A DNA stretch of 64,000 bases from positions 1 through 64,000 of IMG/VR virus record IMGVR_UViG_3300031787_008607, one strand, 5' to 3'. This document shows positions 36,198-55,367 of the stretch, piece by piece (positions within the stretch are counted from its first letter, which is position 1; the number at the start of each line of letters is the position of its first letter). The translations under genes and the position numbers were made by a program. The notes under the pieces were generated by a model. It was not told the DNA's origin. It did no database searches and saw only the letters and a program-made list of their open reading frames with translations. Source of the stretch: an uncultured virus (IMG/VR IMGVR_UViG_3300031787_008607) (lineage: Duplodnaviria > Heunggongvirae > Uroviricota > Caudoviricetes).

Positions 36198-36527
36198 ATG
36201 ATTTTAACTGATAAAGTATTAAATAAACTTTTCAATTCGGAATATATTAAAAATATATATCCGATGATTGATAATATTGATGTTAATGTTGATTGGGATG
36301 GTGACGACGCTTTTCCTTTTTATAGACTTCATGTTACTGTTAAGTTAAATGACCCAACGATTAATGAATATAACATTTATGAAAAAGGATTTGACCCACA
36401 TTATCTTTATAAATATCATTTGAAATACCTTCTTAACTTTTTAAATGTTAATTTAAACACGGCACTTATTGAACAAGTTTTTATTAAAGTCTTAAATCCT
36501 GATGGGGAAGAGATAGTCAAATATTAA
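36198..36527 (+). CDS. Hypothetical protein
   Basis: ORF. Confidence 0.65.
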   Translation: MILTDKVLNKLFNSEYIKNIYPMIDNIDVNVDWDGDDAFPFYRLHVTVKLNDPTINEYNIYEKGFDPHYLYKYHLKYLLNFLNVNLNTALIEQVFIKVLNPDGEEIVKY

Positions 36528-36531
36528 TTAT

Positions 36532-37338
36532 ATGAACCTACAAGAACAAATATCGGGTAATAGAATAATGAACAATACAGGACAATTAAATGAGATACAA
36601 TTAAAAGTATTCAATAAAGTTTTAAATAAACTGTTATCCCAAAATTTCCCTTGGTGGTTTGAAGGTATTGAAATATTTCGTGCTGGATTTAATCATGGTC
36701 AGAAAAACTTGTATATGGATGGAAATATTTATGTTGATGCTGATTGGATAGGTGAGCAGTGGATAAAATATAATGATTATAAACCAGTACCTGAATTTGG
36801 GAATTATTACGATGACTATTCTTTTGGTGATTTGATTGGAATAAATGACGGATGGATTGATATTCTCAAAGAAATATTTCTATCAGTATTTAATTCAATA
36901 CACGGAGGGGATTACCCTAAATACCTATCATTTAGTTGGCTTAATGTTAAACCTGTTGAAACAAAAAAAGAAGAAGATATGAGTGAGAATAATTTCTTAA
37001 AAGAACATATAAAAAAAGTATTAAGGGAGGAGACGGGTGAAAGAACCAAACTTGAAAAGGTTATCACTAATGTTATCAACAGGACATTAGCTGAAAAAGA
37101 ATTACCTGAAAACTTCCATAGTGTTGTTGTTGATGTCTACGGAACAAATTACGGAGATGGTTGTATGATAACTTTATTGATGAAAAGGCCTTATAGTGAA
37201 GAAGAATCTGAAATGTTGTTTGATGTTACTAGAGAAGCTAAAAATTTAATTAAATCGTTCTTCAAAGAACATTTCCTTTATGGTATTAGTATTTCAACAT
37301 CAACTATTGAAAATTACATGAAGATGACAAGTGATTGA
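36532..37338 (+). CDS. MNLQE-leader protein, two fused modules
   Basis: Internal second leader LKEHIKKVLREE. Confidence 0.7.
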   Translation: MNLQEQISGNRIMNNTGQLNEIQLKVFNKVLNKLLSQNFPWWFEGIEIFRAGFNHGQKNLYMDGNIYVDADWIGEQWIKYNDYKPVPEFGNYYDDYSFGDLIGINDGWIDILKEIFLSVFNSIHGGDYPKYLSFSWLNVKPVETKKEEDMSENNFLKEHIKKVLREETGERTKLEKVITNVINRTLAEKELPENFHSVVVDVYGTNYGDGCMITLLMKRPYSEEESEMLFDVTREAKNLIKSFFKEHFLYGISISTSTIENYMKMTSD

Positions 37339-37349
37339 ATATTAATTAT

Positions 37350-37658
37350 ATGAACCTACAAGAACACATAAGAAGAGTATTAAAAGAGGAAACTGAAAAG
37401 TTTGATAAGGTGGAGCATTTTATGAAAACTGCTAATACATTATTCAGCAAACTAAAATTTAAGGCAGTTAAACGTGTTGAGTTTGATTATGACGAAAGGA
37501 TTGAAGGGTTTATTGTTAATGTATTTTATGATAGACAATATGCGATAGATAATCCCAAAGGTTTCAATAAAGTAAAACAAGGATTTATTAAAGAAATTGG
37601 TTCAATCATTACAAAGTTTTTCCCATTCAAATTTTATATTTATTTACATGACGACTAA
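37350..37658 (+). CDS. MNLQE-leader hypothetical protein
   Basis: MNLQEHIRRVLKEE. Confidence 0.75.
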   Translation: MNLQEHIRRVLKEETEKFDKVEHFMKTANTLFSKLKFKAVKRVEFDYDERIEGFIVNVFYDRQYAIDNPKGFNKVKQGFIKEIGSIITKFFPFKFYIYLHDD

Positions 37659-37667
37659 TTATATAAT

Positions 37668-38429
37668 ATGAACTTACACGAACACATAAAAAAAGTATTA
37701 AGAGAAGAGGTTAACAAAAAGTATTTGAAACCGAGTGAAAAATCCGAGAAATTTATTTTGGATAGATTGAATAGTATGGCTTCAGGTGCTGAAATATACC
37801 ACGTTGAAAGTTATAAAACAAGACATGATTTTGAGTTTTGTAAAAATGGGAAACAAATAATGAATCTCGCATTGTTCTTTGAAGAAACTGACGATAATAC
37901 CCCAACGTCTGAAAGACAATTTGAATCTTCAACATTATCAGTACAAGAAGATTTTGTTGGTGGACTATTAGGGGCGTTTCCTGTTAGAAGAAATTATCTT
38001 TATTATATAATTGAAGAATGGTTTGAAGATACTTTTTTAAGTAAAATCTCAGATATGATAGGTAGAAATGATATATCTGTTGAAGAATTATCATTTAATG
38101 ATAGGTCATATACGTGTGTCCCACCAATTAAAGAAGTACCTGAAGGAGTTTCTCAAGACGAGATGATTAAGGTTATTATGAACAATACACTATGGCGTAA
38201 AAAAGATTTATTGGCGTTAGAAGAAAGAGAACCTGGGTCTATAGAATTTATGTATTTACAAAAACTTCGTAATAATGAGGTTAATAGATTAGATGGTGGT
38301 AATCCAATGGGGGAAAGCGAAATAAAAGAAGGTGAATTAACTGAGAAATGTTGGAAAGGATATACTCAAAAAGGAATGAAAACTATGTTTGGTAAGAGAT
38401 ACCCCAACTGTGTTAAAAAGACAAAGTAA
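37668..38429 (+). CDS. MNLQE-leader protein with C-terminal CWKGY...PNCV micro-domain
   Basis: Leader plus Cys motif. Confidence 0.75.
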   Translation: MNLHEHIKKVLREEVNKKYLKPSEKSEKFILDRLNSMASGAEIYHVESYKTRHDFEFCKNGKQIMNLALFFEETDDNTPTSERQFESSTLSVQEDFVGGLLGAFPVRRNYLYYIIEEWFEDTFLSKISDMIGRNDISVEELSFNDRSYTCVPPIKEVPEGVSQDEMIKVIMNNTLWRKKDLLALEEREPGSIEFMYLQKLRNNEVNRLDGGNPMGESEIKEGELTEKCWKGYTQKGMKTMFGKRYPNCVKKTK

Positions 38430-38842
38430 TGAACCTACAAGAACACATAAGAAGAGTATTAAGGGAAGAACTATATTCTCCATCAGGAGATGAATATACA
38501 CCTGGTAAATTTGTTGTTCATAAATCAAATCCTATATGGAGAGAGAACATAGAACTTAAAGGTTTACAAACGTATGTGGGTGATTGTTACCAACAACATG
38601 TTGGAGGTGATGTGGAATGTAAGCCATCAATATTTGCAACAGATTCATTAGATAAGAAACAAATATTTGATTCAACCTATGATGATGACATATGGATTAT
38701 TGATACAGAATGTGCGGGTGTTACTTGGTATAAAGATAGACATTTTGAGGGTGGTGACTACAAACACCATATAGTTACATTTGATAACATATCACCTGAT
38801 TGTTTAAGATTAATACATAAAGGAACAGGGAAAAGTAATTAA
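38429..38842 (+). CDS. MNLQE-leader protein, possible ADP-ribosyltransferase-like fold
   Basis: VHKS...I..KGL...IFAT...WIID pattern. Confidence 0.5.
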   Translation: MNLQEHIRRVLREELYSPSGDEYTPGKFVVHKSNPIWRENIELKGLQTYVGDCYQQHVGGDVECKPSIFATDSLDKKQIFDSTYDDDIWIIDTECAGVTWYKDRHFEGGDYKHHIVTFDNISPDCLRLIHKGTGKSN

Positions 38843-38843
38843 C

Positions 38844-39464
38844 ATGAACCTACAAGAACACATAAGAAGAGTATTAAGGGAAGATAAAAAGAGTAAATTC
38901 ATTATGGATATTGTTGATAAACATGGTGTTTATAAGACGGCAGAAATGATGGGTGTGAGTCTGACCTATTTATACAAAATGTCTGATTTAAAAATTGATG
39001 AATTTGTTGCTAAAGAACTATTAGCTGAAAATATTGTAAATGGTAATTTACCTGCAAAATATAAAGGATTTGAAATTGAAATAAGTAGTGATGATGTGTT
39101 TTATTGGACAAGACAGTTTAAATCGGGACACTATCCACCTAATGTATTAGAAAAAATATGGGTAATGGCAACACCTTTTTTCGCAACTGCTGATTATACA
39201 CCCGTTGAACTTGATTGGTATGGATTAGAAGATGACTCAAATAAACCTAATGTAGGAATATACGATACAAGTGGTGATGGTGATTATTTTGTGGAACTTA
39301 CACATAATACACATAATGGTAACTATTTTTTTAATAGTGTTGATAATTTATTTGATTGGTATAATACGTTTTATTTACCAGGAGTGTATGAAATAATCTT
39401 GGATAGATTCATACCTCAAGTCCAAGAAGACACAGACGAGAGACTTAGAGATAAAAATACTTAA
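38844..39464 (+). CDS. MNLQE-leader hypothetical protein
   Basis: ORF. Confidence 0.75.
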   Translation: MNLQEHIRRVLREDKKSKFIMDIVDKHGVYKTAEMMGVSLTYLYKMSDLKIDEFVAKELLAENIVNGNLPAKYKGFEIEISSDDVFYWTRQFKSGHYPPNVLEKIWVMATPFFATADYTPVELDWYGLEDDSNKPNVGIYDTSGDGDYFVELTHNTHNGNYFFNSVDNLFDWYNTFYLPGVYEIILDRFIPQVQEDTDERLRDKNT

Positions 39465-39517
39465 GATACGGACTTAGGACCGTTGTAGTTTAGGCTACAT
39501 TAACCCCATTGAATTCG

Positions 39518-40252
39518 CTACTCAGTGGGGTTTTCATTTAATATCTCTTCCACCCCTTCAAACACGGGTAGTTCGGTTCCACCAGTTCTGAGTACCTTAT
39601 GATTTAAGACCTCTTCCACCATGCGGAGTGGTTGGGCGATGCAAGAAGATGTTGTGGATACCTTATGATTTAAGACCTCTTCCACCTTGGAATATTGAGT
39701 GTTACATACTCTCAGAGTTGTGGATACCTTACTATTTAATACCTCACCCAACTTAGAGCTTGTCGTGTGGCGAAACGCACAGGTTGTGGATACCTTACTA
39801 TTTAAGACCTCTTCCACCCTTGAAAGAGGATGTAAGAACGTATGCCGCGTTGTGGATATCCTATGATTCAAGACCTCTTCCACCAACAAAATGGAATACC
39901 AACCGTATTCCTTTGTTGTGGATACCCTATGATTTAAGACCTCTTCCACCCTTGAAGTTCTTTTGTTACCTGGGTTCACTGTTGTGGATACCCTATGATT
40001 TAAGACCTCTTCCACCCAAGAAGCGAGTATTGGTTCAAAATCTTCACGTTCCAAAGAAAAAATGGTGAAGAAACTTGGAAAAAAACTATACCTCCAATAC
40101 AATGTACCAGTGTTTTCAAATTCAAAATACCAATACTTTTCTTCTCTATTAATTAACCATATTGAATCTTTATATGGGATTATCTCCGCATTACCTAATT
40201 CTTTGTATAGTTGTTTGAATACAACCTGTTTTAATCTATCAGTTACTTTCAT
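39518..40252 (-). CDS. Array-bearing protein 1: conserved ~80-aa domain plus (VEEVLNHKVSTT + 10 variable aa) units
   Basis: ORF; paralog of three other genes. Confidence 0.8.
   Translation of the reverse strand: MKVTDRLKQVVFKQLYKELGNAEIIPYKDSIWLINREEKYWYFEFENTGTLYWRYSFFPSFFTIFSLEREDFEPILASWVEEVLNHRVSTTVNPGNKRTSRVEEVLNHRVSTTKEYGWYSILLVEEVLNHRISTTRHTFLHPLSRVEEVLNSKVSTTCAFRHTTSSKLGEVLNSKVSTTLRVCNTQYSKVEEVLNHKVSTTSSCIAQPLRMVEEVLNHKVLRTGGTELPVFEGVEEILNENPTE
39519..40016. repeat. CRISPR-like array 1: 36-bp repeat x7 plus partial, 7 unique 30-bp spacers, inside ORF
   Basis: GTTGTGGATACCTTATGATTTAAGACCTCTTCCACC-type units at 39585, 39651, 39717, 39783, 39849, 39915, 39981 (period 66). Confidence 0.9.
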
Positions 40253-40253
40253 A

Positions 40254-40979
40254 TTATTTTTGATTTAATACCTCATCTACCGATTCCGCTCTTCTTGAGA
40301 TGTATTCTTCCGTTTTGGATACCTTACGATTCAATATATCTTCCACCAAAAAGTTTCCTTCACCTACGTCACGGACTGTTTTGGATACCTTAATATCCAA
40401 TACCTCTTCCATCTCAAGATTACCTCTTGGGTGGAGATACTCCGTTGTAGATACCTTACGATTCAATACCTGTTCCACCAAATAGTTGTTAGATAAGGTC
40501 ATGTTTTTTGTTGTGGATACCTTACTATTCAATACCTCTTCCATCATATCATTCGAAGTGAAACTGAATTGCTGAGTTGTAGATACCTTACTATTCAATA
40601 CCTCTTCCACCCCTCGCTTAAAATTTCTGAAACGGCTTGCAGTTGTGGATACCTTACTATTCAATACCTCTTCCACCCCGCCATCCATGACATATTGCGT
40701 GCTGTCAGTTGTGGATACCTTACTATTCAATACCTCTTCCACCCAAGATGAAATAATTGGTTCAAAATCTTTGGACTCCAAAGAGAAAAAAGAAAAGAAA
40801 GATTTGAAATAATCATATCTCCAATATAAACATCCACTTTCAGTTAGTTGGAAATACCAGTATTTTTCTTCTCTATCAATAAACCAATAACTGTATTGGG
40901 TAGGGATAATTTCCACATTACCTAATTCTTTATATAGTTGTTTGAATATGAGTTGTTTTAATCTATCCGTTACTTTCAT
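40254..40979 (-). CDS. Array-bearing protein 2
   Basis: ORF; same architecture. Confidence 0.8.
   Translation of the reverse strand: MKVTDRLKQLIFKQLYKELGNVEIIPTQYSYWFIDREEKYWYFQLTESGCLYWRYDYFKSFFSFFSLESKDFEPIISSWVEEVLNSKVSTTDSTQYVMDGGVEEVLNSKVSTTASRFRNFKRGVEEVLNSKVSTTQQFSFTSNDMMEEVLNSKVSTTKNMTLSNNYLVEQVLNRKVSTTEYLHPRGNLEMEEVLDIKVSKTVRDVGEGNFLVEDILNRKVSKTEEYISRRAESVDEVLNQK
40258..40743. repeat. CRISPR-like array 2: 7 repeats plus partial, 7 spacers
   Basis: Repeat starts 40312, 40378, 40444, 40510, 40576, 40642, 40708. Confidence 0.9.
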
Positions 40980-41733
40980 TTTCTTTTTTGTTGTTTAATG
41001 CCTTTTTCACCCAAACACTATTTAATACTTCTTCCACTGACCTTTCGGAAAATAAGGAATTATTTTTAGTTGTAGATACCCTACTATCTAATACTTTTTT
41101 TACCTTTCTTTTTTGGGTGGCGTCTACTTCAAAAGTTTCGGATACCTTATGATTTAATATTTCTTCCACCCCGCAGCGTTGAAGACCTTCAAAACCGACT
41201 GTTGTGGACACCTTACTATCTAATACCTCTTCCACCTGCTGGTAGTATGCTCCACTCCATGATTCAGTTGTGGACACCTTACTATCTAATACCTCTTCCA
41301 CCGAAGTTTGTTGTCTTCTAGCGGAAAGAGGGGTTGTGGATACCTTATGATTTAATACCTCTTCCACCTCGTGATGTGCTCGGCCAATGGGAAATTCGGT
41401 TGTGGATACCTTATGATTTAAGACCTCTTCCACCTGAAGTAAGCGGTGGGCCAATGTATTACCTGTTGTGGATACCTTATGATTTAATACCTCTTCCACC
41501 CAAGAAGATATTATTGGTTCAAACTCACTCTGTTCCAAAGAGAAAATACTGAAAAACGATGGGAAGAATGAGTATCTCCAAAATAAACATCCCTCTTTAG
41601 ACAACTGAAAATACCAATAACAATTTTCCCTATCAATGAACCATACAGAGTCTTTATATGGGATTATCTCCACATTACCTAACTCTTTGTATAGGTGTTT
41701 GAATATGAGTTGTTTTAGCTTATCTGTAACCAT
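40963..41733 (-). CDS. Array-bearing protein 3
   Basis: ORF; minus-strand TATCTTTG promoter 4-5 nt before ATG. Confidence 0.8.
   Translation of the reverse strand: MVTDKLKQLIFKHLYKELGNVEIIPYKDSVWFIDRENCYWYFQLSKEGCLFWRYSFFPSFFSIFSLEQSEFEPIISSWVEEVLNHKVSTTGNTLAHRLLQVEEVLNHKVSTTEFPIGRAHHEVEEVLNHKVSTTPLSARRQQTSVEEVLDSKVSTTESWSGAYYQQVEEVLDSKVSTTVGFEGLQRCGVEEILNHKVSETFEVDATQKRKVKKVLDSRVSTTKNNSLFSERSVEEVLNSVWVKKALNNKKENESNG
41015..41500. repeat. CRISPR-like array 3: 7 repeats plus partial, 7 spacers
   Basis: Repeat starts 41069, 41135, 41201, 41267, 41333, 41399, 41465. Confidence 0.9.
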
Positions 41734-41769
41734 AAGCACAAAGATACTAAAAAACTTTGAAAATACAAA

Positions 41770-42108
41770 TTAATAATCAGTTGGTATTTTTAACGACCAT
41801 TGACTGTATAATTTATGATTGGTCATATTACCCCCCAAGTTCAGTTTTTTCTTGACCCATTGTCCGATAACTGATTCAGCTTTATACGACTCTATAGAAA
41901 AGAATGAAGATACTTTTTGAATTAATTCAAAATAGATAAAACACAACTCATCATTACGATGTCTACCACCATATTTAATCTGAGCAAACCAATCGTCTGA
42001 ATTTACAAAGTATGTACTGGCACCTTTTTTAAGGATATCAAAATTCTGGCTATCAAGAAACTTGAGTATTGCTTTATCTAATTGTGATTCTGTGATTAAA
42101 TATTTCAT
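41770..42108 (-). CDS. MKYLITES-leader family protein
   Basis: Leader plus shared ~90-aa domain. Confidence 0.75.
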   Translation of the reverse strand: MKYLITESQLDKAILKFLDSQNFDILKKGASTYFVNSDDWFAQIKYGGRHRNDELCFIYFELIQKVSSFFSIESYKAESVIGQWVKKKLNLGGNMTNHKLYSQWSLKIPTDY

Positions 42109-42476
42109 GATAATGTTATACTTCTAACTGATTTAACTTCGTAGTCAGGAAAGAACTCATTAAATACATCTGACATAATGAATTTGCCGTGAACTAACCA
42201 AATAGGATGAGGAAAGGCTGTACCATATACATCGTCAAAGTTCCTATTATAGTATAAATCACCACTTGGTTTATTATAAACCATTACGGCGTTTTGGTCA
42301 CTATCAAATAGGTTAAGTCTTATATCATTTTCAGAATACGAGTCAACCAAATTTTCAAAATAACGAATCATTTTAGGTTTTAGTCTTTCGTATTGTTCCG
42401 TATATTCAAAATCTCTCCAAGTTCTTTCAAGTTCGGATATTAATTTATGTTGTGACTCGGTAATAATATACTTCAT
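42105..42476 (-). CDS. MKYLITES-leader family protein
   Basis: Leader. Confidence 0.75.
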   Translation of the reverse strand: MKYIITESQHKLISELERTWRDFEYTEQYERLKPKMIRYFENLVDSYSENDIRLNLFDSDQNAVMVYNKPSGDLYYNRNFDDVYGTAFPHPIWLVHGKFIMSDVFNEFFPDYEVKSVRSITLS

Positions 42477-42483
42477 GTAATAA

Positions 42484-42503
42484 TAAATATAATTATATTT
42501 ATA
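42484..42503. promoter_or_regulatory. Back-to-back TATTTAT motifs (palindrome TAAATATAATTATATTTA) between divergent genes
   Basis: Between starts 42476(-) and 42509(+). Confidence 0.6.
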
Positions 42504-42508
42504 ATATT

Positions 42509-42832
42509 ATGAACCTACAAGAGAATATAAAAAAAGTATTAAGGGAAGAAACAGATTTTTCACCAAAGTTCAAAAGAAGATTGAATAGATTTAAATCGTT
42601 TGTATGGGATAACAATGTAACTAATTATCCCTGTGATTTTGAAAACTTTGAAGCGTTCATGCGTGGTATACAACATGAAATTATGGACATGATTACAGAT
42701 GGTTCTGATACCGATGGCCCGTTGTCTGATTGGTTAAAATATAAAGATGCTGTTACGTATGTAGAAAACTACATGAGGGATGACTTAGAAAAGTTTTATA
42801 ATAAGCAATGTGTTGATGTCTTATACGTATAA
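42509..42832 (+). CDS. MNLQE-leader hypothetical protein
   Basis: Leader. Confidence 0.75.
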   Translation: MNLQENIKKVLREETDFSPKFKRRLNRFKSFVWDNNVTNYPCDFENFEAFMRGIQHEIMDMITDGSDTDGPLSDWLKYKDAVTYVENYMRDDLEKFYNKQCVDVLYV

Positions 42833-43177
42833 ATTAAGAAATTGTTCCACTGATATTCCAAGACCTGAGATACCAAAAAGTTCCATAAATTCAGACTCAT
42901 CATATCTATCACATCCGTTATTGATAATCCAAGGAATATCTGTAACATAATTCATCTGATAAAGTATATTATAACTATTATCTAATTTTATAAGATACAA
43001 CGGACCATAGTAATCCATACTAAGTCTTCTTCGTAAACCATCATCGGTAATACAGTTATCAAAAGACATCATTACATCAATTAAATCTGGGTCAATCTCC
43101 ACACGACCCGTAAGGTCAATATTAAACTTGTTTTTAATGAATGTTTTTAATTTAGATTCAGTAATTAAGTATTTCAT
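42821..43177 (-). CDS. MKYLITES-leader protein
   Basis: Start moved to leader ATG. Confidence 0.75.
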   Translation of the reverse strand: MKYLITESKLKTFIKNKFNIDLTGRVEIDPDLIDVMMSFDNCITDDGLRRRLSMDYYGPLYLIKLDNSYNILYQMNYVTDIPWIINNGCDRYDESEFMELFGISGLGISVEQFLNLYV

Positions 43178-43193
43178 TATATATAAATATAAG

Positions 43194-43604
43194 TTAACAA
43201 TTTCCTGTATTATAAACCTCAATATTATGACCTCTAATTAGACCGCCACCCAACTGATATAAAGCCTTAGAAATAACATCTCTATACATACTTCTTGTAC
43301 CTTCCTCATAGATATACCTTCCCACATTTGCAGGGGCTGGCTTAGGTATGTAGACAACCAAATTCATAGAGTCACGAGTGGGGATGATATTATAACTACA
43401 ATACATCAAGACGGTTGAGATATCATTTTCAATTATAGTTTTTGTTAGAAAGATAATATCTTCTCTTGTTCCTTTAAGACCAATCTCATCAATAATATCT
43501 TCAGGTTCCTTATCAGTCATTTTACACAGAGTACGCATACCAAATTTCTCTAATAAGGGTTTAAGAGTTTTGTTATATTGATTCTCAGTGATTAAGTATT
43601 TCAT
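43194..43604 (-). CDS. MKYLITE-leader protein
   Basis: Leader. Confidence 0.75.
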   Translation of the reverse strand: MKYLITENQYNKTLKPLLEKFGMRTLCKMTDKEPEDIIDEIGLKGTREDIIFLTKTIIENDISTVLMYCSYNIIPTRDSMNLVVYIPKPAPANVGRYIYEEGTRSMYRDVISKALYQLGGGLIRGHNIEVYNTGNC

Positions 43605-43616
43605 TATATGTAAATA

Positions 43617-43949
43617 TTAGTTATAGTGAACCCTCAAAACTTCGGACTTGCTAAAGACAACCCATTGCGCGTAACTGACTTCCATTTGTAAGGTATCCGC
43701 AACCCAATTACCGATAATGTTTTTAGAGGTGACTTCATTTAAAGAAAATAATACAGAGATGTCCTCAATTAAATTCAACGTTATCTGACCAACACCATTT
43801 TTTTTATTATATCTAATTTGGGCATGTTCATCCTCTTCTGAATTAACAAAGAATATATTACTACTTGTTTCAATCTGAATAAAGTTCTGACTATCCAAAT
43901 ATCTAAAGATTACTCTGTCTAATTGTGATTCGGTGATAAGGTATTTCAT
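43617..43949 (-). CDS. MKYLITES-leader family protein
   Basis: Leader plus shared domain. Confidence 0.75.
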   Translation of the reverse strand: MKYLITESQLDRVIFRYLDSQNFIQIETSSNIFFVNSEEDEHAQIRYNKKNGVGQITLNLIEDISVLFSLNEVTSKNIIGNWVADTLQMEVSYAQWVVFSKSEVLRVHYN

Positions 43950-43952
43950 ATA

Positions 43953-44273
43953 TTAATAATCAAAAAACATAACATCAACATCAAATGCTTTACTAAACCA
44001 ATCAGAAATGAATTTACCTGATTGCTCTTTATCAAGTGGATACATGGATGAAAACTTATCTAAAAAAGATTCATCAATAAATAATCTACCATCGCTGTGG
44101 TCAAACTCCATTAAAATAAAAAAATCAGGGCCTCTTTCAGGGCTATATATATTAATGAAATCACTATCAGATGTTCTATCATAATCTAATAATTTATTTA
44201 ACTCAGATATCATTAAATTATTTATTACCGATTTGACTTTATCTAATTGTGATTCGGTGATGAGGTATTTCAT
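43953..44273 (-). CDS. MKYLITES-leader family protein
   Basis: Start moved to leader ATG. Confidence 0.75.
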   Translation of the reverse strand: MKYLITESQLDKVKSVINNLMISELNKLLDYDRTSDSDFINIYSPERGPDFFILMEFDHSDGRLFIDESFLDKFSSMYPLDKEQSGKFISDWFSKAFDVDVMFFDY

Positions 44274-44306
44274 ATAAAATATAAATATAATCATATTTAT
44301 AATAAT

Positions 44307-44678
44307 ATGAACTTAGAAGGGACAATTAAAAGGATACTCAAAGAAGAATTCAAAAAGGATAAGATAATTGACGGATATATTACGTCATTAATTAAACCTG
44401 TTGGTCGATTTAAAGAGGGGTATAATCATGACGCTGGTAGATTTGACATCACTGACAATAATGATAATTTACGTGCTACCATATTCTATAACAAAAGAAG
44501 AGACGCAATGGAAGTTATGATTGATGAGGATATATGGAATCTTTTGTCTTCAGTGTTCTCAAGGGAAACTTGGGATGAGATAAATGATAGTTTGGTTAAA
44601 TGGTTCCAAGAAAATTACGATGAGTTAGAAGATATCTACGAAGTTAATACGTTTGATAATGCTGAATATGCTTACTAA
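44307..44678 (+). CDS. MNL-leader hypothetical protein
   Basis: MNLEGTIKRILKEE. Confidence 0.75.
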   Translation: MNLEGTIKRILKEEFKKDKIIDGYITSLIKPVGRFKEGYNHDAGRFDITDNNDNLRATIFYNKRRDAMEVMIDEDIWNLLSSVFSRETWDEINDSLVKWFQENYDELEDIYEVNTFDNAEYAY

Positions 44679-44679
44679 T

Positions 44680-45009
44680 ATGAACTTAAAAGAATCTATA
44701 AAAAGAATACTGAGGGAAGAACTATCGGCGAGAATTAAAAGAAGACTTTCTAATGATGAAATGGAAAATGAGTTTCTTGAATCTTTTGAAGATGCTTATC
44801 GTATTACAAAGAACAGAAAGGTTTTAAGTTCACATTTTTTAGATGAGTTAGTCTACACAACAATAACCGTTATGATGGATGGGGTACATTGGAGATTTGT
44901 TAGTACATTACCTGAAGATGAATTTTGGTATGATGATATACACCAAGGGTTAGAAAATCATTATAGAAAAAGAATTACACGGATGTATAATGAAAGAAAA
45001 GGTTTCTAA
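44680..45009 (+). CDS. MNL-leader hypothetical protein
   Basis: MNLKESIKRILREE. Confidence 0.75.
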   Translation: MNLKESIKRILREELSARIKRRLSNDEMENEFLESFEDAYRITKNRKVLSSHFLDELVYTTITVMMDGVHWRFVSTLPEDEFWYDDIHQGLENHYRKRITRMYNERKGF

Positions 45010-45012
45010 AGA

Positions 45013-45291
45013 TTAATTAGAGTTTAAGAATTTAAGTAATGCTCTAATATATTCGGAACGTTTATCATAGAATTCAGTATCATTATCATATTGAAAAAAC
45101 TCTTCACCTCTATGTCTATCAATGAACTTTTCAATTAATTCATAAGCGTAGTCATCTCTGTCTGCAGAATCTTCAAAATCTTCTTCATCCATAATGTAGT
45201 TATAATCATCCCTAAGTGCTTCCAATTCATCCATTGTAAACCTCCTAAGTAAAAATGCTTCTAACTGTGATTCTGTAATTAAGTATTTCAT
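45013..45291 (-). CDS. MKYLITES-leader protein
   Basis: Leader. Confidence 0.75.
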   Translation of the reverse strand: MKYLITESQLEAFLLRRFTMDELEALRDDYNYIMDEEDFEDSADRDDYAYELIEKFIDRHRGEEFFQYDNDTEFYDKRSEYIRALLKFLNSN

Positions 45292-45294
45292 ATA

Positions 45295-45591
45295 TTAAAA
45301 CATCCAGCCTGTACTTTTAACTTCCATATCTAAAGTGTTCTCAACCCATTTACCAATAAGTTCCTCTGAGTAGTTACTATCTAAACTAAATAGACTTGTA
45401 ATCTCACTTATTAAATCATAATAAATGATACACTTATGATTATATATATCATAAACAACATAGGCATAATCATCATGACCTTTTCTAACAAAATAAATGT
45501 GAGTAGTTTTATCAAGTATCTTTAGGTCCAAACCATTCAGATACTTCATAACAACTTTTTCTAATTTTGATTCTGTAATAATATATTTCAT
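45295..45591 (-). CDS. MKYIITES-leader family protein
   Basis: Leader plus shared domain ending WVENTLDMEVKST. Confidence 0.75.
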   Translation of the reverse strand: MKYIITESKLEKVVMKYLNGLDLKILDKTTHIYFVRKGHDDYAYVVYDIYNHKCIIYYDLISEITSLFSLDSNYSEELIGKWVENTLDMEVKSTGWMF

Positions 45592-45905
45592 AATATTAAT
45601 CTTACATCTATTGTTATGCCGTGAACCTCATATGGTGCAAAACCTGTATATGGGTTAAGTCCGCTTGTTTTAATACTCAAAAAATCTTTTATCGACCTTC
45701 TAATCTCACGTTCTAAATTTAATTCCTTTAGTTTATTAAGATTATAATGGTAAGGGTTGGTTATATATGAATCATCAATATGAGAAACGTAAACATCAAT
45801 TAACATCTCATCATCAAACTCACTCTTTCTAACTTTAATCTCGTCAGGAGAGTATAATGTATTAATTAGTTTTACAATTGCTTTAACCTTATGCTCAATC
45901 TTCAT
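45588..45905 (-). CDS. Hypothetical protein
   Basis: ORF; TATTTAT upstream. Confidence 0.65.
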   Translation of the reverse strand: MKIEHKVKAIVKLINTLYSPDEIKVRKSEFDDEMLIDVYVSHIDDSYITNPYHYNLNKLKELNLEREIRRSIKDFLSIKTSGLNPYTGFAPYEVHGITIDVRLIL

Positions 45906-45973
45906 ATTATAATAAATACAAAGATAAGTATAAACTCGTATAGGATTATAATGGGGAGTGGGGGAAATAATTA

Positions 45974-46270
45974 CTATTTAATTATAATTCCTTCAACTCT
46001 TCTATCCAAAGTATTCTCAACCCATCTAGCAATAACATATTTAGCATTATCAAATTCTATAGAGAAGAAATCTTTAATCTCATCAATTAACTCAAAACTT
46101 ATTCCACAGTCACCACTTCTAAAGTATTCGATTAATGTGTCGATATATTCATCATCTTCCGAATTAACAAAGTATATTGCGTTTCCTCTTTTAATCTGAA
46201 TAAAGTTCTTAATATCCAAATATCTAAAGATTACTTTATCTAATTGTGATTCTGTTATGAGGTATTTCAT
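45974..46270 (-). CDS. MKYLITES-leader family protein
   Basis: Leader plus shared domain. Confidence 0.75.
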   Translation of the reverse strand: MKYLITESQLDKVIFRYLDIKNFIQIKRGNAIYFVNSEDDEYIDTLIEYFRSGDCGISFELIDEIKDFFSIEFDNAKYVIARWVENTLDRRVEGIIIK

Positions 46271-46300
46271 TGTATATAAATATCATAAAGATAATAACTA

Positions 46301-47095
46301 TTATTGATTTAATACCTGTTCCATCACATAATTCATAACAGACATTTCTACATCCGTTGTACATTCCTTATGATTTAATACTTCTTCCACCCCTCTTGTG
46401 AAGGGTCCAGAATATGCTTCCAATGTTGATACCTTATGATTTAATACTTCTTCCACCAATGAATGTTCGGGGTATTTGAGAATGGTGGTTGTAGACACTT
46501 TAACATTATGACTTAATACATCTTCCACCCGTGTTCGGATATGAGCATTGTGAGTATTAGTTGTGGATACCTTACTATTTAATACCTCTTCCACCTTCCA
46601 AGGAACACGAACTTTAACATCGCACGTTGTGGATACCTTATGATTTAATACATCTTCCACCATCATGCTTTCAACACCGCTACCTGTCACGGTTGTGGAT
46701 ACCTTATGATTTAAGACCTCTTCCACCTCTCTCCCATTATTATACCTGCTATCATCCGTTGTGGATACCTTATGATTTAAGACCTCTTCCACCTTGTCCG
46801 TTGTAATTGGAAGTGGAATGAAGGTTGTGGATACCTTATGATTTAAGACCTCTTCCACCCAAGAAGATAGAACAGGACAAAAATCATCCGAGCTCATTGA
46901 GAATATTTGAAAAAACGAATTGAAAAAATCGTATCTCCACCATAAAGTACCTGACTCATCAAGTTCAAAGTACCAATATTTATTATCCCTATTAATGAAC
47001 CATGTAGACCCATTATAAGGAATAATCTCACAATCACCCAACTCTTTATATAGGTGTTTAAAAATAAGTTGTTTTAATCTATCTGTAATAACCAT
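46301..47095 (-). CDS. Array-bearing protein 4
   Basis: ORF; minus-strand TATATTTG promoter just upstream. Confidence 0.8.
   Translation of the reverse strand: MVITDRLKQLIFKHLYKELGDCEIIPYNGSTWFINRDNKYWYFELDESGTLWWRYDFFNSFFQIFSMSSDDFCPVLSSWVEEVLNHKVSTTFIPLPITTDKVEEVLNHKVSTTDDSRYNNGREVEEVLNHKVSTTVTGSGVESMMVEDVLNHKVSTTCDVKVRVPWKVEEVLNSKVSTTNTHNAHIRTRVEDVLSHNVKVSTTTILKYPEHSLVEEVLNHKVSTLEAYSGPFTRGVEEVLNHKECTTDVEMSVMNYVMEQVLNQ
46304..46859. repeat. CRISPR-like array 4: 8 repeats plus partial, 8 spacers
   Basis: Repeat starts 46356, 46422, 46488 (6-bp insertion), 46560, 46626, 46692, 46758, 46824. Confidence 0.9.
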
Positions 47096-47130
47096 AGAGC
47101 AAATATAGTAAGAAATTATGAACTAAACAA

Positions 47131-47199
47131 ACTCATTCCCCCATTCCACTATCGTGTCGTTCCATTCCCCTTCGGGTCATTACACTAATGGGTTCATTC
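47131..47199. repeat. Structured ~70-bp element, copy A (left of R-M pair)
   Basis: ACTCATTCC-CCCATT...AATGGG-TTCATTC. Confidence 0.6.
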
Positions 47200-47275
47200 A
47201 TTTGTTTACTTCTTAATTTTCAAAAAAAGTTTGGTTGTTAATGAAAAATTACTATATTAGTATAAAATATCGGTT

Positions 47276-47989
47276 ATGGAACAAAAAGTAATAAATGAGT
47301 TTGTGATGGATTCAATCGATGAATTAAAATCGGTTGACAGAAAGTACAAAAAATTTAGTGAACTTATGTCTAAACATAATCCGTATGAACTCTCGGTATT
47401 TTGTGATACCCCTAAAAAGATTGTTGATTTTGTAATGATTAGTCATAAACAAACATCAAGACAAACCATTATGGGTAATTTATTAGAATCAATTGCGATT
47501 AAAATTAGTTCAGTAATACTAGGAGGGTACAAATCTAAGGAAGAGTGTACCGATTTAGAGTGGGTTAATGATGATTTATTTCACTATAGAGGATGGAAGT
47601 CAAGTCCTAAATGGTGTAACGCTGACCAAAAAAAGAGAGTTAATATTAAGGTGGGGGAACTAAAAGAAAATAATGATTTCGGTAGTTTTAAAGTTCTGAC
47701 TTCTTACGGTAAGACCACCAAAAAAAATACGGAAAAAAACTTTACACAGTTATCGGGGCAAGACTCGTGGTATGAAATCAGTAACGACCCTGAGATGTAT
47801 AATAAAGTTATGATTGCCATTGTTAAACACTCCAAATATCTTAATCAGGTGATAGAGGATATTTACTCATCGAATGTTAAAGAATCGGTAGAATGGGTGG
47901 ATAGAAACTTTACAAATAAGGATAAAACAATTAATTTTATTAAAATAAATGAGTATGTCAGCGGAAGGAATAAAGTTACAGTCAGCTAA
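47276..47989 (+). CDS. Putative type II restriction endonuclease
   Basis: MGNLLE...DLE...KSSPKWCNADQ PD-(D/E)xK-like motif; adjacent to MTase. Confidence 0.6.
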   Translation: MEQKVINEFVMDSIDELKSVDRKYKKFSELMSKHNPYELSVFCDTPKKIVDFVMISHKQTSRQTIMGNLLESIAIKISSVILGGYKSKEECTDLEWVNDDLFHYRGWKSSPKWCNADQKKRVNIKVGELKENNDFGSFKVLTSYGKTTKKNTEKNFTQLSGQDSWYEISNDPEMYNKVMIAIVKHSKYLNQVIEDIYSSNVKESVEWVDRNFTNKDKTINFIKINEYVSGRNKVTVS

Positions 47990-48818
47990 TGGTAATACTA
48001 TTGAGTTATTTCATGGGGATTCGTTAGATATATTAAAATTAATTGATGATAATTCAGTTGATTTAATTGTTACGTCTCCACCATATTCTGACCAAAGAAA
48101 ATCAACATACGGTGGAATACATCCTGACAAATATGTGGAATGGTTTTTACCAATAAGTAAAGAATTACTTAGGGTATTAAAACCAACAGGTTCCTTTGTT
48201 CTTAATATTAAGGAAAAGGTATATAACGGTGAGAGACACACATATGTTTTGGAACTTATTATTGCAATGAGGAACCAAGGTTGGTTGTGGACTGAAGAAT
48301 ATATGTGGCATAAGAAGAATTCATTTCCTGGCAAATGGCCAAACAGATTACGAGATGCGTGGGAGAGATTATTACATTTCAATAAGGAGAAAAAGTTTGA
48401 TATGTATCAAGATAATGTTAAAGTTCCCATAGGTGATTGGTCTACAAAAAGATTGGCCAACCTAAGTGATACAGATAAGAAAAGAGATGTCTCCAAAGTA
48501 GGAAGTGGTTTCGGTAAGAAAATAGAAAATTGGGTAGGTAAAGAAATGGTATTACCTGATAACGTATTATATATGGCAACAGAGTCGTCTAATAAAGGAC
48601 ACTCAGCGGCATACCCTGAATCATTACCTGAATGGTTTATTAAACTCTTTACTAAAGAAGGTGATGTTGTGTTAGACCCATTTTTAGGTAGTGGCACAAC
48701 ATGTAAAGTTGCAACTGACTTAAATAGAAATTCCATAGGTATCGAATTAAATGATGAGTATTTTAATTTAACATTAAATAAGTTAAATGAATATGTGAGT
48801 AATGAAACAATAAATTAA
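47949..48818 (+). CDS. N4-cytosine/N6-adenine DNA methyltransferase (beta class)
   Basis: TSPPY before VLDPFLGSGTT. Confidence 0.93.
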   Translation: MSMSAEGIKLQSANGNTIELFHGDSLDILKLIDDNSVDLIVTSPPYSDQRKSTYGGIHPDKYVEWFLPISKELLRVLKPTGSFVLNIKEKVYNGERHTYVLELIIAMRNQGWLWTEEYMWHKKNSFPGKWPNRLRDAWERLLHFNKEKKFDMYQDNVKVPIGDWSTKRLANLSDTDKKRDVSKVGSGFGKKIENWVGKEMVLPDNVLYMATESSNKGHSAAYPESLPEWFIKLFTKEGDVVLDPFLGSGTTCKVATDLNRNSIGIELNDEYFNLTLNKLNEYVSNETIN

Positions 48819-51730: not shown

Positions 51731-51847
51731 AATCCTGGAAAAATTTTTTAGAAAAGCGACCCTTTGTTTTAAAATGTTCCCTATATGTAAAAAATAAATT
51801 TTGGGAAATTTTTTGGAAAATTGGTATTTATATATAAAATATATACT

Positions 51848-52090
51848 ATGAAAAAGATTAGATTAACAGAAAAAGAATTAACCAATATAATTAAAAGGGT
51901 TATTAATGAAGAAAGAGATGAAGATTCATTTCATGATGATACTGAGTCAGTACATGTCCAAATTATGGATATTTTACAACCTGTTTATAAAACATACGGA
52001 ACGGAAGGTGTCGTAAGAGTTTTAACTGATATTATTGATACTATAGGTGATATTGGGGACGAAGCATTTATGGGTACTGAAGATTATTAA
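51848..52090 (+). CDS. LTE-leader hypothetical protein
   Basis: MKKIRLTEKEL. Confidence 0.7.
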   Translation: MKKIRLTEKELTNIIKRVINEERDEDSFHDDTESVHVQIMDILQPVYKTYGTEGVVRVLTDIIDTIGDIGDEAFMGTEDY

Positions 52091-52173
52091 CCTCTCCAAT
52101 GATAGTATTGTTGGACTGACCCTTCCTTTAACGGAGGGGTTTTTTATTTCATTTTTTTTCTTATTATTGATAT

Positions 52174-52422
52174 ATGGAAATGGAAGAAGAAAAATTATCA
52201 GTTACTGTGGATGTAACATTAAGGGACAATAAATTTTTTTATGACATAATGGCCAAGAAGGGTATGAATATTAATGATATTATATCTGTATTGTGTGGGG
52301 CTATTTCATTATCTATTCGTAGTAGGGAAACCCCTGAGTTACAGGGTCAGACTCTTAGGGATATCATTGGTCATTTGGAATCTGAGTTTATTAATGTGGA
52401 TTCATTTTCTGATGTTAAATAA
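52174..52422 (+). CDS. Hypothetical protein
   Basis: ORF. Confidence 0.6.
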   Translation: MEMEEEKLSVTVDVTLRDNKFFYDIMAKKGMNINDIISVLCGAISLSIRSRETPELQGQTLRDIIGHLESEFINVDSFSDVK

Positions 52423-52471
52423 TTTTTTGGTAAATTAGTATTATTGTTTTATCTTTGTAAAAAAAATATAT

Positions 52472-52975
52472 ATGGAACCTGAAGAAGAAAATATTGGTAT
52501 GATGAATATTTTAGGAGATAATTTTTTGTTAACAAGAGATTACGGTGAATATCGTGTAACTAATGGAGGAATAACTGTTAACCCGTATGTTGATAATGAT
52601 TATGGTATCCCTTCAACGTGCAACAGAATGTATAATAAGGATGGTGAATTTGTTTTTCCTGAGATGTTATTCAAGGTTCTTAAGAAGAGTTTACCTGGTA
52701 TTCATTCAATTACTGTTAATAAGATTGAAACTAAATATTCATATGCTTTTGTTGATAGTTTAGAATCCACCCCAACGTATTTGGTATATGTTGATGTTAG
52801 ATACAATTGGGATACAAGTGATGTATTATCTCCTGAGAAGTTGGGTGATAAAATCAACATGTCATTTCCTATGATATATACTGACGTTAAGTTTGTTAAG
52901 TTTCATGTAAACACCGTTAAGGTTGAGAGACGTGATTACGAGAAAGAGTTTATGAATATCTTTGGGAAAAAATAA
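52472..52975 (+). CDS. Hypothetical protein
   Basis: ORF. Confidence 0.65.
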   Translation: MEPEEENIGMMNILGDNFLLTRDYGEYRVTNGGITVNPYVDNDYGIPSTCNRMYNKDGEFVFPEMLFKVLKKSLPGIHSITVNKIETKYSYAFVDSLESTPTYLVYVDVRYNWDTSDVLSPEKLGDKINMSFPMIYTDVKFVKFHVNTVKVERRDYEKEFMNIFGKK

Positions 52976-52996
52976 TTTTTTTCTTATATTTGTATT

Positions 52997-53458
52997 ATGA
53001 AACTTACAAATAAACAATTGGTTAAGGTTGAGGAGACATTGAAGGATTTTCTTTGTCTTGTTCCGAGGTATTTGGAAGTTAAGGATAATGATGTATTATA
53101 TGATATGTTTTTATCTAGGAACCGCAACCCTTTGTTTGATTTAACTAACACTAAGTTTTGGCATACGGGTTTATCATCTAATGGAGTTAAGGGTGGTGGT
53201 AAGATTGTTCATGACCACTATGTTCCGAGAAAGATTGCCATGGGATATATCATGGATGAGTTAAGTAAGAATCCTACTATTGGTGTTGATGATTTTGTTT
53301 TATTATGTAAGAAATATGCGTCCACCATTTCTTTGACTGACAAGGAACATTCATTGGTTACTCTTAGAGCTAAGAACACGGGTAAGTGTAACTACGAGTT
53401 TTATTCTGAGTGTGGGATTATCATTGAGGGATTGGATGAACTTGTTGGTAAATTATAA
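52997..53458 (+). CDS. Hypothetical protein (HDHYVP motif, possibly HNH-like)
   Basis: ORF; TATATTTG upstream. Confidence 0.6.
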   Translation: MKLTNKQLVKVEETLKDFLCLVPRYLEVKDNDVLYDMFLSRNRNPLFDLTNTKFWHTGLSSNGVKGGGKIVHDHYVPRKIAMGYIMDELSKNPTIGVDDFVLLCKKYASTISLTDKEHSLVTLRAKNTGKCNYEFYSECGIIIEGLDELVGKL

Positions 53459-53463
53459 AAATA

Positions 53464-53510
53464 TTTTTTTTCCGTTGTTCCAATCCCCCCTACCCCCCTT
53501 TTTTATTTTG
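53464..53510. repeat. Intergenic ~45-bp repeat, copy 1 (others at ~54460-54500 and ~55300-55337)
   Basis: TTTTTTCCGTTGTTCCAATCCCCCCTACCCCCCTTTTT. Confidence 0.8.
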
Positions 53511-53545
53511 TATCTTTAGTTTATATTTATTTAAAAATCAAGTAT

Positions 53546-54121
53546 ATGGATATTAGAAAATTTATTGATAAAGTTAAGAACTTTGATTCGTCAAAAAAGA
53601 CTTACGAGCAGATTGGTGCGAGTAGTTTAATGGAAGGATTAAAATTAAATGGGTTTTCTATTAATATAGACAACGACCCTGATGCTCAAACATTTTATAT
53701 ACAACCAAATGTTGAATCTGAACTTACTGAAGAAATTGATTTTGAGTTTGAAGATAAAGGTGGGGTAATTGTTTTTTCTGTTAATGTTAATGCTGTTGAA
53801 TTATCTAAAAACAAGTTGGTTCGTTTTATTAAAAACAAACTTGAAACCGCAACAAATATTTTGTTTAAATCAAGTAAAATAAATAAGGTGATTAAAAACA
53901 ACCCTGAAATATTTGGTGTGACCATTGGAAATTTTGTTAAGGGTCGATATAAAGCCAAAGATGGTTCGTTGTATGATGAGAGTTCATTATCTGTTGAAAT
54001 CGTTGGAATTACTTCTGACGTATTAAATAAGGTTGCTGAAGAACTTGCTCAAGAATTTAAACAAGAGACTGTCTTGGTTAAGAATTACGATGAAAATAAA
54101 ATCTATTTGGTTAAACCTTAA
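53546..54121 (+). CDS. Hypothetical protein
   Basis: ORF; AEELAQEFKQETVLV motif. Confidence 0.7.
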   Translation: MDIRKFIDKVKNFDSSKKTYEQIGASSLMEGLKLNGFSINIDNDPDAQTFYIQPNVESELTEEIDFEFEDKGGVIVFSVNVNAVELSKNKLVRFIKNKLETATNILFKSSKINKVIKNNPEIFGVTIGNFVKGRYKAKDGSLYDESSLSVEIVGITSDVLNKVAEELAQEFKQETVLVKNYDENKIYLVKP

Positions 54122-54156
54122 TTTCCCCTTTTTTATTTCTGTTATATTTATTACAT

Positions 54157-54459
54157 ATGAAAAAGATAATTAGACTTACAGAATCAGATTTGACTCGTAT
54201 AATTAAACGAGTTATTGCGGAGCAAACATATCCGAAACAGAAGATGGATGCTCTTAAAGAAAGAATAAAAAGATATTACAACTCTGAAGATGTTAGTCGA
54301 TTGTCAATACATGGTAACGAAATGTTAAATACATATAATTTAGAACCAAATATGTTCTGGACCGCCTTTGATGAATATTTTGAATCGACAAGAAATAATC
54401 CCCCGACAAAGGTTTTTATTAATAACGTTGAAGTTAAACGTACAGACAAGAAAAAATAA
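54157..54459 (+). CDS. LTESDL-leader protein
   Basis: Leader. Confidence 0.75.
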   Translation: MKKIIRLTESDLTRIIKRVIAEQTYPKQKMDALKERIKRYYNSEDVSRLSIHGNEMLNTYNLEPNMFWTAFDEYFESTRNNPPTKVFINNVEVKRTDKKK

Positions 54460-54532
54460 TTTTTTTTCCGTTGTCCCAATTCCCCCCTACCCCCTTTTTT
54501 GTTTTGGGGTGTATTTATTATAAAATATTAAT

Positions 54533-54913
54533 ATGAAAAAAGTTATAACATTAACTGAATCAGATTTGGTTAAAATAGTTAAAAGAGTTGTTAAGGAAAA
54601 TAGACATGAAGAAAAGGATATTTTCATATCTGCTGGATTTAAGGGTGTTAGAAATAAAGTTGGTGAAACATCTTCACCACAGAGTATTATTGAGTTATAC
54701 AATGAGTATGTTGAAGGAGGTACCCCGTTGGTGAAATATCTTGGACGTGATATTTTTTTGAATGTTAATGATGAGGAGGTTGATAAGTATACAGTTCTTG
54801 ACGATTTGAATTATGTTCTTCTTGGTAAAGAAGATGAGGAAGATGATGATAATCGTCAAAGCTTTAAGGAAACCGGCAGACATCTTGGATGGTTTAATCC
54901 CAAACGTTGGTGA
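54533..54913 (+). CDS. LTESDL-leader protein
   Basis: Leader. Confidence 0.75.
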   Translation: MKKVITLTESDLVKIVKRVVKENRHEEKDIFISAGFKGVRNKVGETSSPQSIIELYNEYVEGGTPLVKYLGRDIFLNVNDEEVDKYTVLDDLNYVLLGKEDEEDDDNRQSFKETGRHLGWFNPKRW

Positions 54914-54985
54914 TGTAAAACAATATTAAATTATACAACCCCTCCGATGTGAGGGGTTTTTTATTTTTAAGGTATTTATTGTAAT

Positions 54986-55297: not shown

Positions 55298-55367
55298 AAT
55301 TTTTTCCCGTTGTTCCAATCCCCCTACCCCCTTTTTAATTTTGTGGTATTTATAATAAAATATTATT

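Follow-up and report, generated by a model that had tools for sequence, protein, structure and literature searches.

Diversity-generating retroelements (DGRs) use a reverse transcriptase and a template repeat to change adenines within a variable region of fixed length. Off-target ('neo-CRISPR') spacer integration by Cas1-Cas2 was reportedly described by Nivala, Shipman and Church in 2018. For F. columnare, the accessible text of Hoikkala et al. (2021, PMC8092290) gives the II-C and VI-B repeats as both 36 bp, a leader-distal GTTGT as common to the II-C and VI-B repeats of nine species, and the VI-B array as filled in trans by the II-C Cas1; II-C adaptation there has a PAM, unlike in the phage arrays described below. 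Phages without cas genes also carry CRISPR-like repeats, in the form of mini-arrays, solitary repeat units and RNA anti-CRISPRs, according to the accessible portions of PMC10651486 and PMC11656645. We found no description of translated, in-gene repeat-spacer arrays in the literature, subscription journals aside, nor does the accessible text of a 2024 review (PMC11656645) hold one.

The arrays reported here lie in genes of a large, uncultured T4-like lake phage, and they share something with each of these systems. Like the F. columnare VI-B and II-C arrays, they combine repeats of 36 nt with spacers of 30 nt that derive from other DNA, have new units at one end and degenerate repeats at the far end, are transcribed from the 'leader' side and carry a leader-distal GTTGT. 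Unlike those arrays, they sit inside a translated gene with a folded protein domain as the 'leader', in phage records where we detected no cas genes; their spacers, from the presumed host chromosome, show neither a PAM nor a strand bias, their repeat core differs from the VI-B repeat, and their RNA fold is not conserved. As in neo-CRISPR, a spacer-sized insert goes with a ruler-length duplication of the local target, and the new repeat arises from non-CRISPR DNA; the phage arrays differ in being no rare accident but conserved in a large gene family, in frame, with 8–9 units at most and with conserved target nucleotides. As with a DGR, a phage-borne process at the nucleic-acid level makes the C-terminal part of a protein hypervariable, but whole 30-bp foreign fragments are inserted. 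With phage mini-arrays and RNA anti-CRISPRs they share CRISPR-like repeats on phages that lack cas genes; those elements, as portrayed in the accessible parts of the two sources, are non-coding RNA mimics of the host's repeats, whereas the arrays here are coding and carry host-DNA spacers, and we found no matching host repeat. We consider it probable that these are repeat-spacer arrays of CRISPR architecture, built in phage protein genes by ruler-type insertion of host DNA and read as protein.

Four arrays in paralogous phage genes

The window, that is, the whole stretch of DNA analyzed, is the first 64 kb of the 132.7-kb IMG/VR virus record IMGVR_UViG_3300031787_008607 (CheckV completeness 45%). 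Gp23 capsid protein, Gp20 portal and a T4-type terminase mark the record as a T4-like phage; it also has many auxiliary genes, and its GC content is 31–32%. Four arrays were found in the window, all on the minus strand, each inside one of four paralogous ORFs (244, 241, 258 and 264 aa) in which a conserved 79-codon N-terminal part is followed by units reading VEEVLNHKVSTT plus ten variable residues.

39518..40252, minus strand: gene A1, 244 aa; N-terminal domain, 7 units and a degenerate terminal repeat containing the stop codon
40016..40252, minus strand: A1 N-terminal domain, 79 codons, the last of them Trp; occupies the position of a CRISPR leader
39585..40016, minus strand: A1 array, 7 full units of 36+30 nt
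39981-40016, 39915-39950, 39849-39884, 39783-39818, 39717-39752, 39651-39686 and 39585-39620, minus strand: 36-nt repeats of A1, with 30-nt spacers in between
39519..39554, minus strand: degenerate terminal repeat of A1, reading VEEILNENPTE, then stop
40254..40979, minus strand: gene A2, 241 aa; array at 40282-40743
40963..41739, minus strand: gene A3, 258 aa counted from GTG, with an ATG at 41733; array at 41039-41500
46301..47095, minus strand: gene A4, 264 aa; array at 46361-46859
46488-46529, minus strand: 42-nt repeat of A4, the single long repeat, with an in-frame 6-nt insertion

Several other features of the phage were recorded. A phage-borne restriction-modification pair (47276-48818), made up of a type II endonuclease resembling EcoO109I (E 7e-23) and an N6/N4 DNA methylase (E 3e-47), lies directly upstream of gene A4 on the opposite strand. 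Consecutive genes at 6487-12413 encode a full-length Hsp70/DnaK (E 2e-260), two PAS/HATPase histidine kinases and a response-regulator receiver, and a ClpB-like AAA+ protein is encoded at another place in the phage record. Two candidate counter-defence genes, at 15459-15908 and 19938-20669, encode a protein with a cyclic-phosphate-processing receiver domain (cREC_REC, E 8e-19) and a Tad6 homologue (E 6e-17), Tad6 being a Thoeris inhibitor. An 11-nt unit, CGGTACTTGGT, forms a perfect tandem of 4 copies (96% matches) at 61129-61172, within a minus-strand ORF. At 1-50, 137-186, 3564-3613, 54951-55000 and 60200-60249 (families D12, D14, D16 and D19) there recurs a module of a GC-rich hairpin and T-run (terminator-like) followed immediately by TATTTAT...ATATGAAA, at the starts of genes, which is probably a phage terminator-promoter cassette. 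A promoter and terminator scan gave a signal no higher than that of shuffles.

Repeat edges are set at the nucleotide level

The original prediction held that the repeat block begins at the third base of the codon preceding Val, ends two bases into a Thr codon and measures exactly 36 nt. A per-position logo, built from the 28 units of 36 nt in the four arrays with the one 42-nt unit left out, bore this out in every part. The first base of the block was G in 28/28 units (2.0 bit), against 0.27 bit for the base preceding it (position 0); position 36 was C in 27/28 (1.78 bit), and the Thr wobble at position 37 was free (0.03 bit; A7 G7 C5 T9). On both sides, conservation falls from about 2 bits to <0.3 within one base, and the edges lie off codon boundaries. 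Across 19 non-redundant related loci G directly follows the spacer in 150/153 cases, where the genome-wide frequency of G at codon position 3 is 11.6%.

Bacterial protospacers (see below) fix the same edges independently. The bacterial match was confined to the 30 nt in 12/12 cases; since the bacterial base after the match was G in 0/12 and the base before it C in only 1/12, the insert measures 30 bp exactly, and the repeat includes the wobble G.

Codon choice within the repeat was compared among diverged lineages whose N-terminal domains share only 45–60% identity. These had been found through that domain alone, so there was no ascertainment on the repeat. GTG for Val was kept in 10/10 lineages (genome-wide share 8.4%), AAG for Lys in 12/12 (23.6%), ACA for Thr in 9/9 (42.7%) and the wobble G at repeat position 1 in 12/12 (11.6%). 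Copying by insertion accounts for uniformity inside an array, not for conservation between lineages. With 30-bp bacterial inserts between exact 36-bp duplications, base-sharp edges and rare synonymous codons fixed, the proposal that a nucleic-acid-level process sets the edges holds.

Spacers are captured bacterial DNA

Spacer GC is 41.7%, compared with 40.5% for the presumed host loci and 31.1% for the phage. Queried against the phage's own 132 kb and related loci, 93 spacers gave array copies and short chance matches only. The arrays gave a single chance-level BLAST match (E 0.2) in 50,697 INPHARED phage records, and the core of spacer A4-0 was found across IMG/VR at 6 loci, all of them array copies.

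Among 401 Flavobacterium genomes, spacer A1-0 matched at 27/30 in register (L096), inside a transporter gene. This was the one in-register near match, the other matches in the 401 genomes being low-complexity, and Flavobacterium was rejected as the spacer source. When the 22-nt core of A1-0 was searched in a metagenome collection, a non-array contig (L112) was found with an exact 30/30 match; two further contigs (L110 and L113) had A1-0 at 28/30. All three matches lie in one and the same Atg22/MFS gene, and their flanks do not resemble the repeat. The transporter protein reached at best 58% identity in 401 Bacteroidota genomes, which nevertheless indicated the correct family, and 85–99% in a family-level search. 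The source genus is one of Bacteroidota, with 27 species and small genomes of 1.6–2.8 Mb.

We searched the arrays on five genomes of this genus and added the metagenome match. Twelve of the 41 distinct spacers tested matched at 27–30 of 30 bases, exactly in register, in the five genomes or the metagenome contig of the genus, where we estimate a chance expectation of ∼1e-4; two matches (A1-0 and A4-1) were exact at 30/30. The remaining 29 tested spacers gave no bacterial match. Spacers of the window with matches include the following.

39951..39980, minus strand: spacer A1-0, 30/30 copy of part of a bacterial Atg22/MFS transporter gene, antisense
39819..39848, minus strand: spacer A1-2, 29/30 in a TonB-dependent receptor gene of genomes G830 and G837, antisense
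40546-40575, minus strand: spacer A2-2, 29/30 to a DUF5916 gene, sense
41303-41332, minus strand: spacer A3-2, 28/30 to a rhodanese-domain gene, sense
46794-46823, minus strand: spacer A4-0, 29/30 bacterial match
46728-46757, minus strand: spacer A4-1, 30/30 in genome G841
46458-46487, minus strand: spacer A4-5, 28/30 bacterial match

In a more distant phage (L029), 2/17 spacers match at 26/30. An L084 spacer shares 16 nt with the same transporter gene, but in register it agrees at only 17/30, and the match was rejected as chance. Separately, two bacterial genomes match at 30/34 a 34-nt stretch (40566-40599) that takes in 24 nt from the end of an A2 repeat and 10 nt from the start of spacer A2-2; this match is out of register with the spacer.

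The 12 protospacers divide into 6 sense and 6 antisense, with 2 of the 6 sense ones in the bacterial reading frame. Their source genes are ordinary (transporter, TonB-dependent receptor, HtpG, glutamate dehydrogenase, GH92 glycosidase and others), and no PAM or flanking motif was visible in the 12 protospacer flanks. The spacers are captured bacterial chromosomal DNA. Judging only from the spacer matches, the source genus would be the host of the phage.

Inserts are kept open for translation

Within the window, the 29 spacers contain no stop codon in 319 codons of the coding frame, against 17.75 ± 3.98 expected from shuffling (none of 5000 shuffles reached zero) and 10–27 stops in the other five frames. 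The 19 non-redundant related loci likewise have 0/869 in-frame spacer stops, compared with 23–72 in other frames. All 36 arrays are in frame with their own ORF (one is cut at its 5' end by the contig end), and each ORF opens with the N-terminal domain unless truncated by a contig end. Of 30-mers drawn from host-like contigs, only 64% are open in the array frame, and yet all 79 independent spacer clusters are open (P ∼5e-16). The only change in repeat length is the in-frame 6-nt insertion.

Variants of shared spacers carry 13 synonymous and 14 nonsynonymous changes (pN/pS ∼0.3). The synonymous excess, at P 0.004–0.03 according to the transition bias assumed and with 27 changes in all, is no more than suggestive of selection on the translated product. 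The original prediction had also inferred selection on translation, and the 0/869 stops, the probability attached to the open clusters, the in-frame length change and the synonymous excess agree with it.

Units turn over whole, from one end

Searching IMG/VR with a pattern derived from the repeat ends gave 27 loci on 19 contigs, 18 of which have arrays of the same kind. One lone pattern match (L025) was left out of the locus set, and L013, L019, L023, L024, L026, L033, L036 and L039 were dropped as same-contig duplicates or identical arrays. A separate search using the N-terminal domain alignment only found 28 loci, including lineages at 45–59% identity. Lineages found through the domain also have 36+30 units starting with the wobble G; their spacers are unrelated, and their repeats are lineage-specific and identical inside each array. 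The domain family numbers 389 cluster representatives at E ≤ 1e-3. Among the best 150 of these, 75 have at least 2 units at 22-aa spacing by a motif pattern devised for this analysis, a count that misses decayed arrays. Family members have up to 8–9 units per gene and keep a protein-level motif, V-E-[ED]-x-L-N-x-[KR]-V.

In the 19 non-redundant loci, 176/182 repeat-to-repeat intervals are 66 nt. The remaining 6 are 138 nt, each a 72-nt unit (with the in-frame 6-nt insertion in its repeat) plus a 66-nt unit. None of the 182 intervals has a 27- or 33-nt insert, though frame selection alone would permit both. The 93 distinct spacers of these loci form 79 clusters, and pairwise mismatches are bimodal, falling at ≤6 of 30, where two strains have the same spacer, or at ≥12, and never at 7–11. 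Spacers differ from each other at all bases, and no reverse transcriptase was found in 146 ORFs, which does not fit a DGR.

Orthologous arrays differ in which whole units they contain, the order is always collinear, and the C-terminal units are common to nearly all strains. Polarity was measured on 20 arrays with 125 spacers, after removal of identical arrays. Of 18 singleton spacers, 7 were at the first position, adjoining the domain, and 0 at the last (mean relative rank 0.31; P = 0.004 by within-array shuffling). An array with this geometry and polarity, with sharp edges and exact foreign inserts, bears the signature of ruler-type integration like that of CRISPR adaptation. Constant repeat and spacer lengths, spacers copied from foreign DNA and polarized acquisition with a conserved trailer end are CRISPR traits that the phage arrays have; a non-coding array behind a non-coding leader is one that they lack, and no associated cas1/cas2 was found in six phage records (45–82% complete).

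The stretch is present in lake and freshwater metagenomes of 17 studies. Metagenome contigs from four runs break at the repeats and carry other spacers, which is population heterogeneity. Three contigs from a single RNA library cover A2 and A3 in part, from which strand and processing are not readable and for which DNA carry-over is possible.

The repeat is the last helix of the protein domain

An AlphaFold2 model of the A1 protein was built with 122 aligned family members. Residues 1 to ∼108 were modeled as a confident alpha/beta domain (pLDDT 85–97). The last helix of the N-terminal domain continues into the first repeat, the helix at 69–84 including it (VEEVLNH; pLDDT 93–97). Residues 114–244 have pLDDT <50, and the array-encoded tail is accordingly predicted to be disordered. 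A fold search against solved structures gave no resembling fold (best Z 4.2). Matches in BFVD were uncharacterized proteins of uncultured phages, among them stand-alone proteins of ∼105 aa (TM ∼0.7).

The window also has paralogues without an array.

45295..45591, minus strand: 98-aa small paralogue that has no array; the first repeat aligns with its C-terminal helix, WVENTLDMEVKST
41770-42108, 43617-43949 and 45974-46270: similar small paralogues

The alignment of this helix with the first repeat is supported at E 5e-4 by BLASTP and E 1.4e-3 by hhalign. Because the C-terminal helix of the small paralogues aligns with the first repeat, the repeat is the family's own last helix rather than an import from a CRISPR locus.

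Dozens of small paralogous genes with near-identical first 15–25 codons were seen at 36500-46300, 1-1300 and 51800-62900. Their products start with MKYLITESQLD..., MNLQEHIRRVLRE... or MKKVIRLTESDL..., and DNA-level conservation of these starts (repeat families D6-D11, D13, D15 and D20) is seen on both strands around the arrays. The array genes are members of this wider family; L091 and L092 retain an MKYIITE... extension.

A repeat that is the family's own C-terminal helix, with its motif kept at the protein level, is also what an ordinary tandem-repeat protein would have, one in which 22-residue units were duplicated, the loops came under diversifying selection and the repeats were homogenized by gene conversion. 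Such a protein would not have spacers copied from bacterial genes, and the exact bacterial protospacers already contradict it. Nor would it be expected to lack intermediate similarities among spacers or to have sharp conservation edges off codon boundaries, and the unrelated spacers, edges out of codon phase and predicted disorder of the tail are equally unlike a solenoid-like repeat. We regard this explanation as scarcely credible.

Comparison with CRISPR-Cas loci

We searched for genes that might write or use the arrays. Cas1 was detected in 0/6 phage records (that of the window and 5 related ones, 45–82% complete). No cas, reverse transcriptase or integrase gene was found in 146 ORFs with Pfam or 38 ORFs with PHROGs, and none of the three was found among 73 ORFs neighboring the arrays in 14 loci. 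In the source genus, Cas1 was found in 1/27 genomes (G840), in the only CRISPR-Cas locus seen in the genus.

8339-14122 of L143 (G840:C13:260000-279999): cas9 (1184 aa), cas1 and cas2

Its II-C array has ∼11 repeats of 47 nt (GTTGTGAATTGCTG...) and 30-nt spacers.

The repeat-end pattern was run against 185,579 species genomes, one per species. Of 25 loci, 2 were arrays, in F. columnare and F. covae only; the other 23 were single matches, about the number expected by chance. The arrays of both species have 36-nt repeats and 29–31-nt spacers and adjoin Cas13b. The VI-B repeat agrees with the phage coding-strand repeat at 24/36 positions, of which 19 are forced by the search pattern, leaving 8/17 of the free ones. 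The F. covae II-C repeat has GTTGTGG in common with the opposite strand of the phage repeat.

One explanation of this likeness is a working guide-RNA array, in which the mRNA would be cut at Cas13b-like repeats into crRNAs for a host effector that silence host genes or act as a decoy, translation merely protecting the long transcript. The coding-strand repeat shares size, spacer length, orientation and ends with the F. columnare VI-B repeat, beside which Cas13b lies; window-type repeat RNAs fold, weakly, as a closing stem plus a small hairpin; and the RNA-library contigs over parts of A2 and A3 point faintly the same way. However, Cas13b was found in 0/27 source-genus genomes, with the positive control detected in G001, and in 0/5 related phage records (52–82% complete), and outside the two Flavobacterium species named no cellular array had the repeat-end pattern among the 185,579 species genomes. 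The fold is lost in other lineages (L081 and L088 at about 0 kcal), and an Rfam scan of 39000-47500 gave only chance-level matches, with no CRISPR repeat family. The even split of protospacers between the strands shows no antisense bias. The absence of a PAM and of strand or frame preference, with no effector found, argues against use as guides, and we judge a guide-RNA array very unlikely.

Alternatively, the arrays might be scars of a host CRISPR integrase, Cas1-Cas2 mistaking the end of the phage gene for a leader-repeat junction as in neo-CRISPR. Degraded host DNA would then be inserted during infection, and the arrays would be purposeless, tolerated when in frame. The geometry is like that of Bacteroidota arrays, F. 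columnare II-C and VI-B repeats being 36 nt with 29–31-nt spacers, and one source-genus genome has cas9-cas1-cas2 with 30-nt spacers. In the accessible text of PMC8092290, moreover, the leader-distal GTTGT that the phage repeat has is common to II-C and VI-B, and one Cas1 fills a second array in trans. Against this, Cas1 was found in that one genome of 27 only, and its repeat there is 47 nt, so that the ruler length does not equal the duplication, and the 12 protospacers show no PAM. A harmful or neutral target would be expected to decay, yet diverged lineages keep both the wobble G and the rare codons, and most family members retain arrays. The ancestral domain-plus-helix protein would be regained through one stop in the first spacer, but spacer stops number 0/869; zero stops hold for A1 too, which has no gene behind it. 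Scars of this kind are an unlikely explanation, though not so remote a one as guide RNAs.

A proposed mechanism and its meaning

Under ruler-type insertion of host DNA, the reading that we prefer, a fixed-ruler process would cut where the N-terminal domain meets the first repeat, which consists of the codons for the domain's final helix, counted from the Trp wobble G. Each event would bring in a 30-bp bacterial (host) chromosomal fragment and duplicate exactly 36 bp; because 36+30 = 66 nt = 22 codons, it would add one helix (VEEVLNHKVSTT) and ten effectively random in-frame residues. Fragments would enter from either strand, in any frame and without a PAM, and only stop-free 30-bp inserts would persist. 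Older units, at the C-terminal end, would decay and then vanish as whole units. The outcome would be a phage protein family in which a folded domain (∼100 residues) carries a hypervariable tail that is predicted to be disordered and that records host DNA.

Beyond the demonstrated geometry, host origin of the spacers, polar turnover, open-frame selection and conservation of repeat nucleotides, we infer that a single integrase-like enzyme of the Cas1-Cas2 kind does the writing. There is an even chance that this writer is an enzyme other than those recognized here, possibly encoded by the phage; host Cas1-Cas2 is a rather less likely candidate, and something else altogether less likely again. The phage would appear to benefit from the arrays, since the target nucleotides are kept; the open frame together with these conserved nucleotides argues that the phage maintains both a translated product and its writability.

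What the arrays offer is the CRISPR manner of DNA writing, with a fixed duplication and a fixed foreign insert at one end, within translated genes of widespread lake phages, where the donor is the host chromosome and no known cas gene is in sight. Three questions become testable: the writing enzyme, adaptation-like integration outside CRISPR-Cas, and the use of a tail of host-derived random decapeptides. In practical terms, the arrays tie uncultured phages to hosts, here to one genus, and can serve as a strain-level clock for phage populations.

More tentatively, and with somewhat less than even confidence, we suggest that this phage lineage runs a spacer-writing system as a protein diversifier rather than as an immune memory, possibly with a phage-encoded integrase of 36/30 ruler that places random host DNA in frame. 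If so, every strain would have its own set of hypervariable protein tails, targeted protein diversification would have a further natural route besides DGRs, and a CRISPR-style adaptation step would be working without Cas1.
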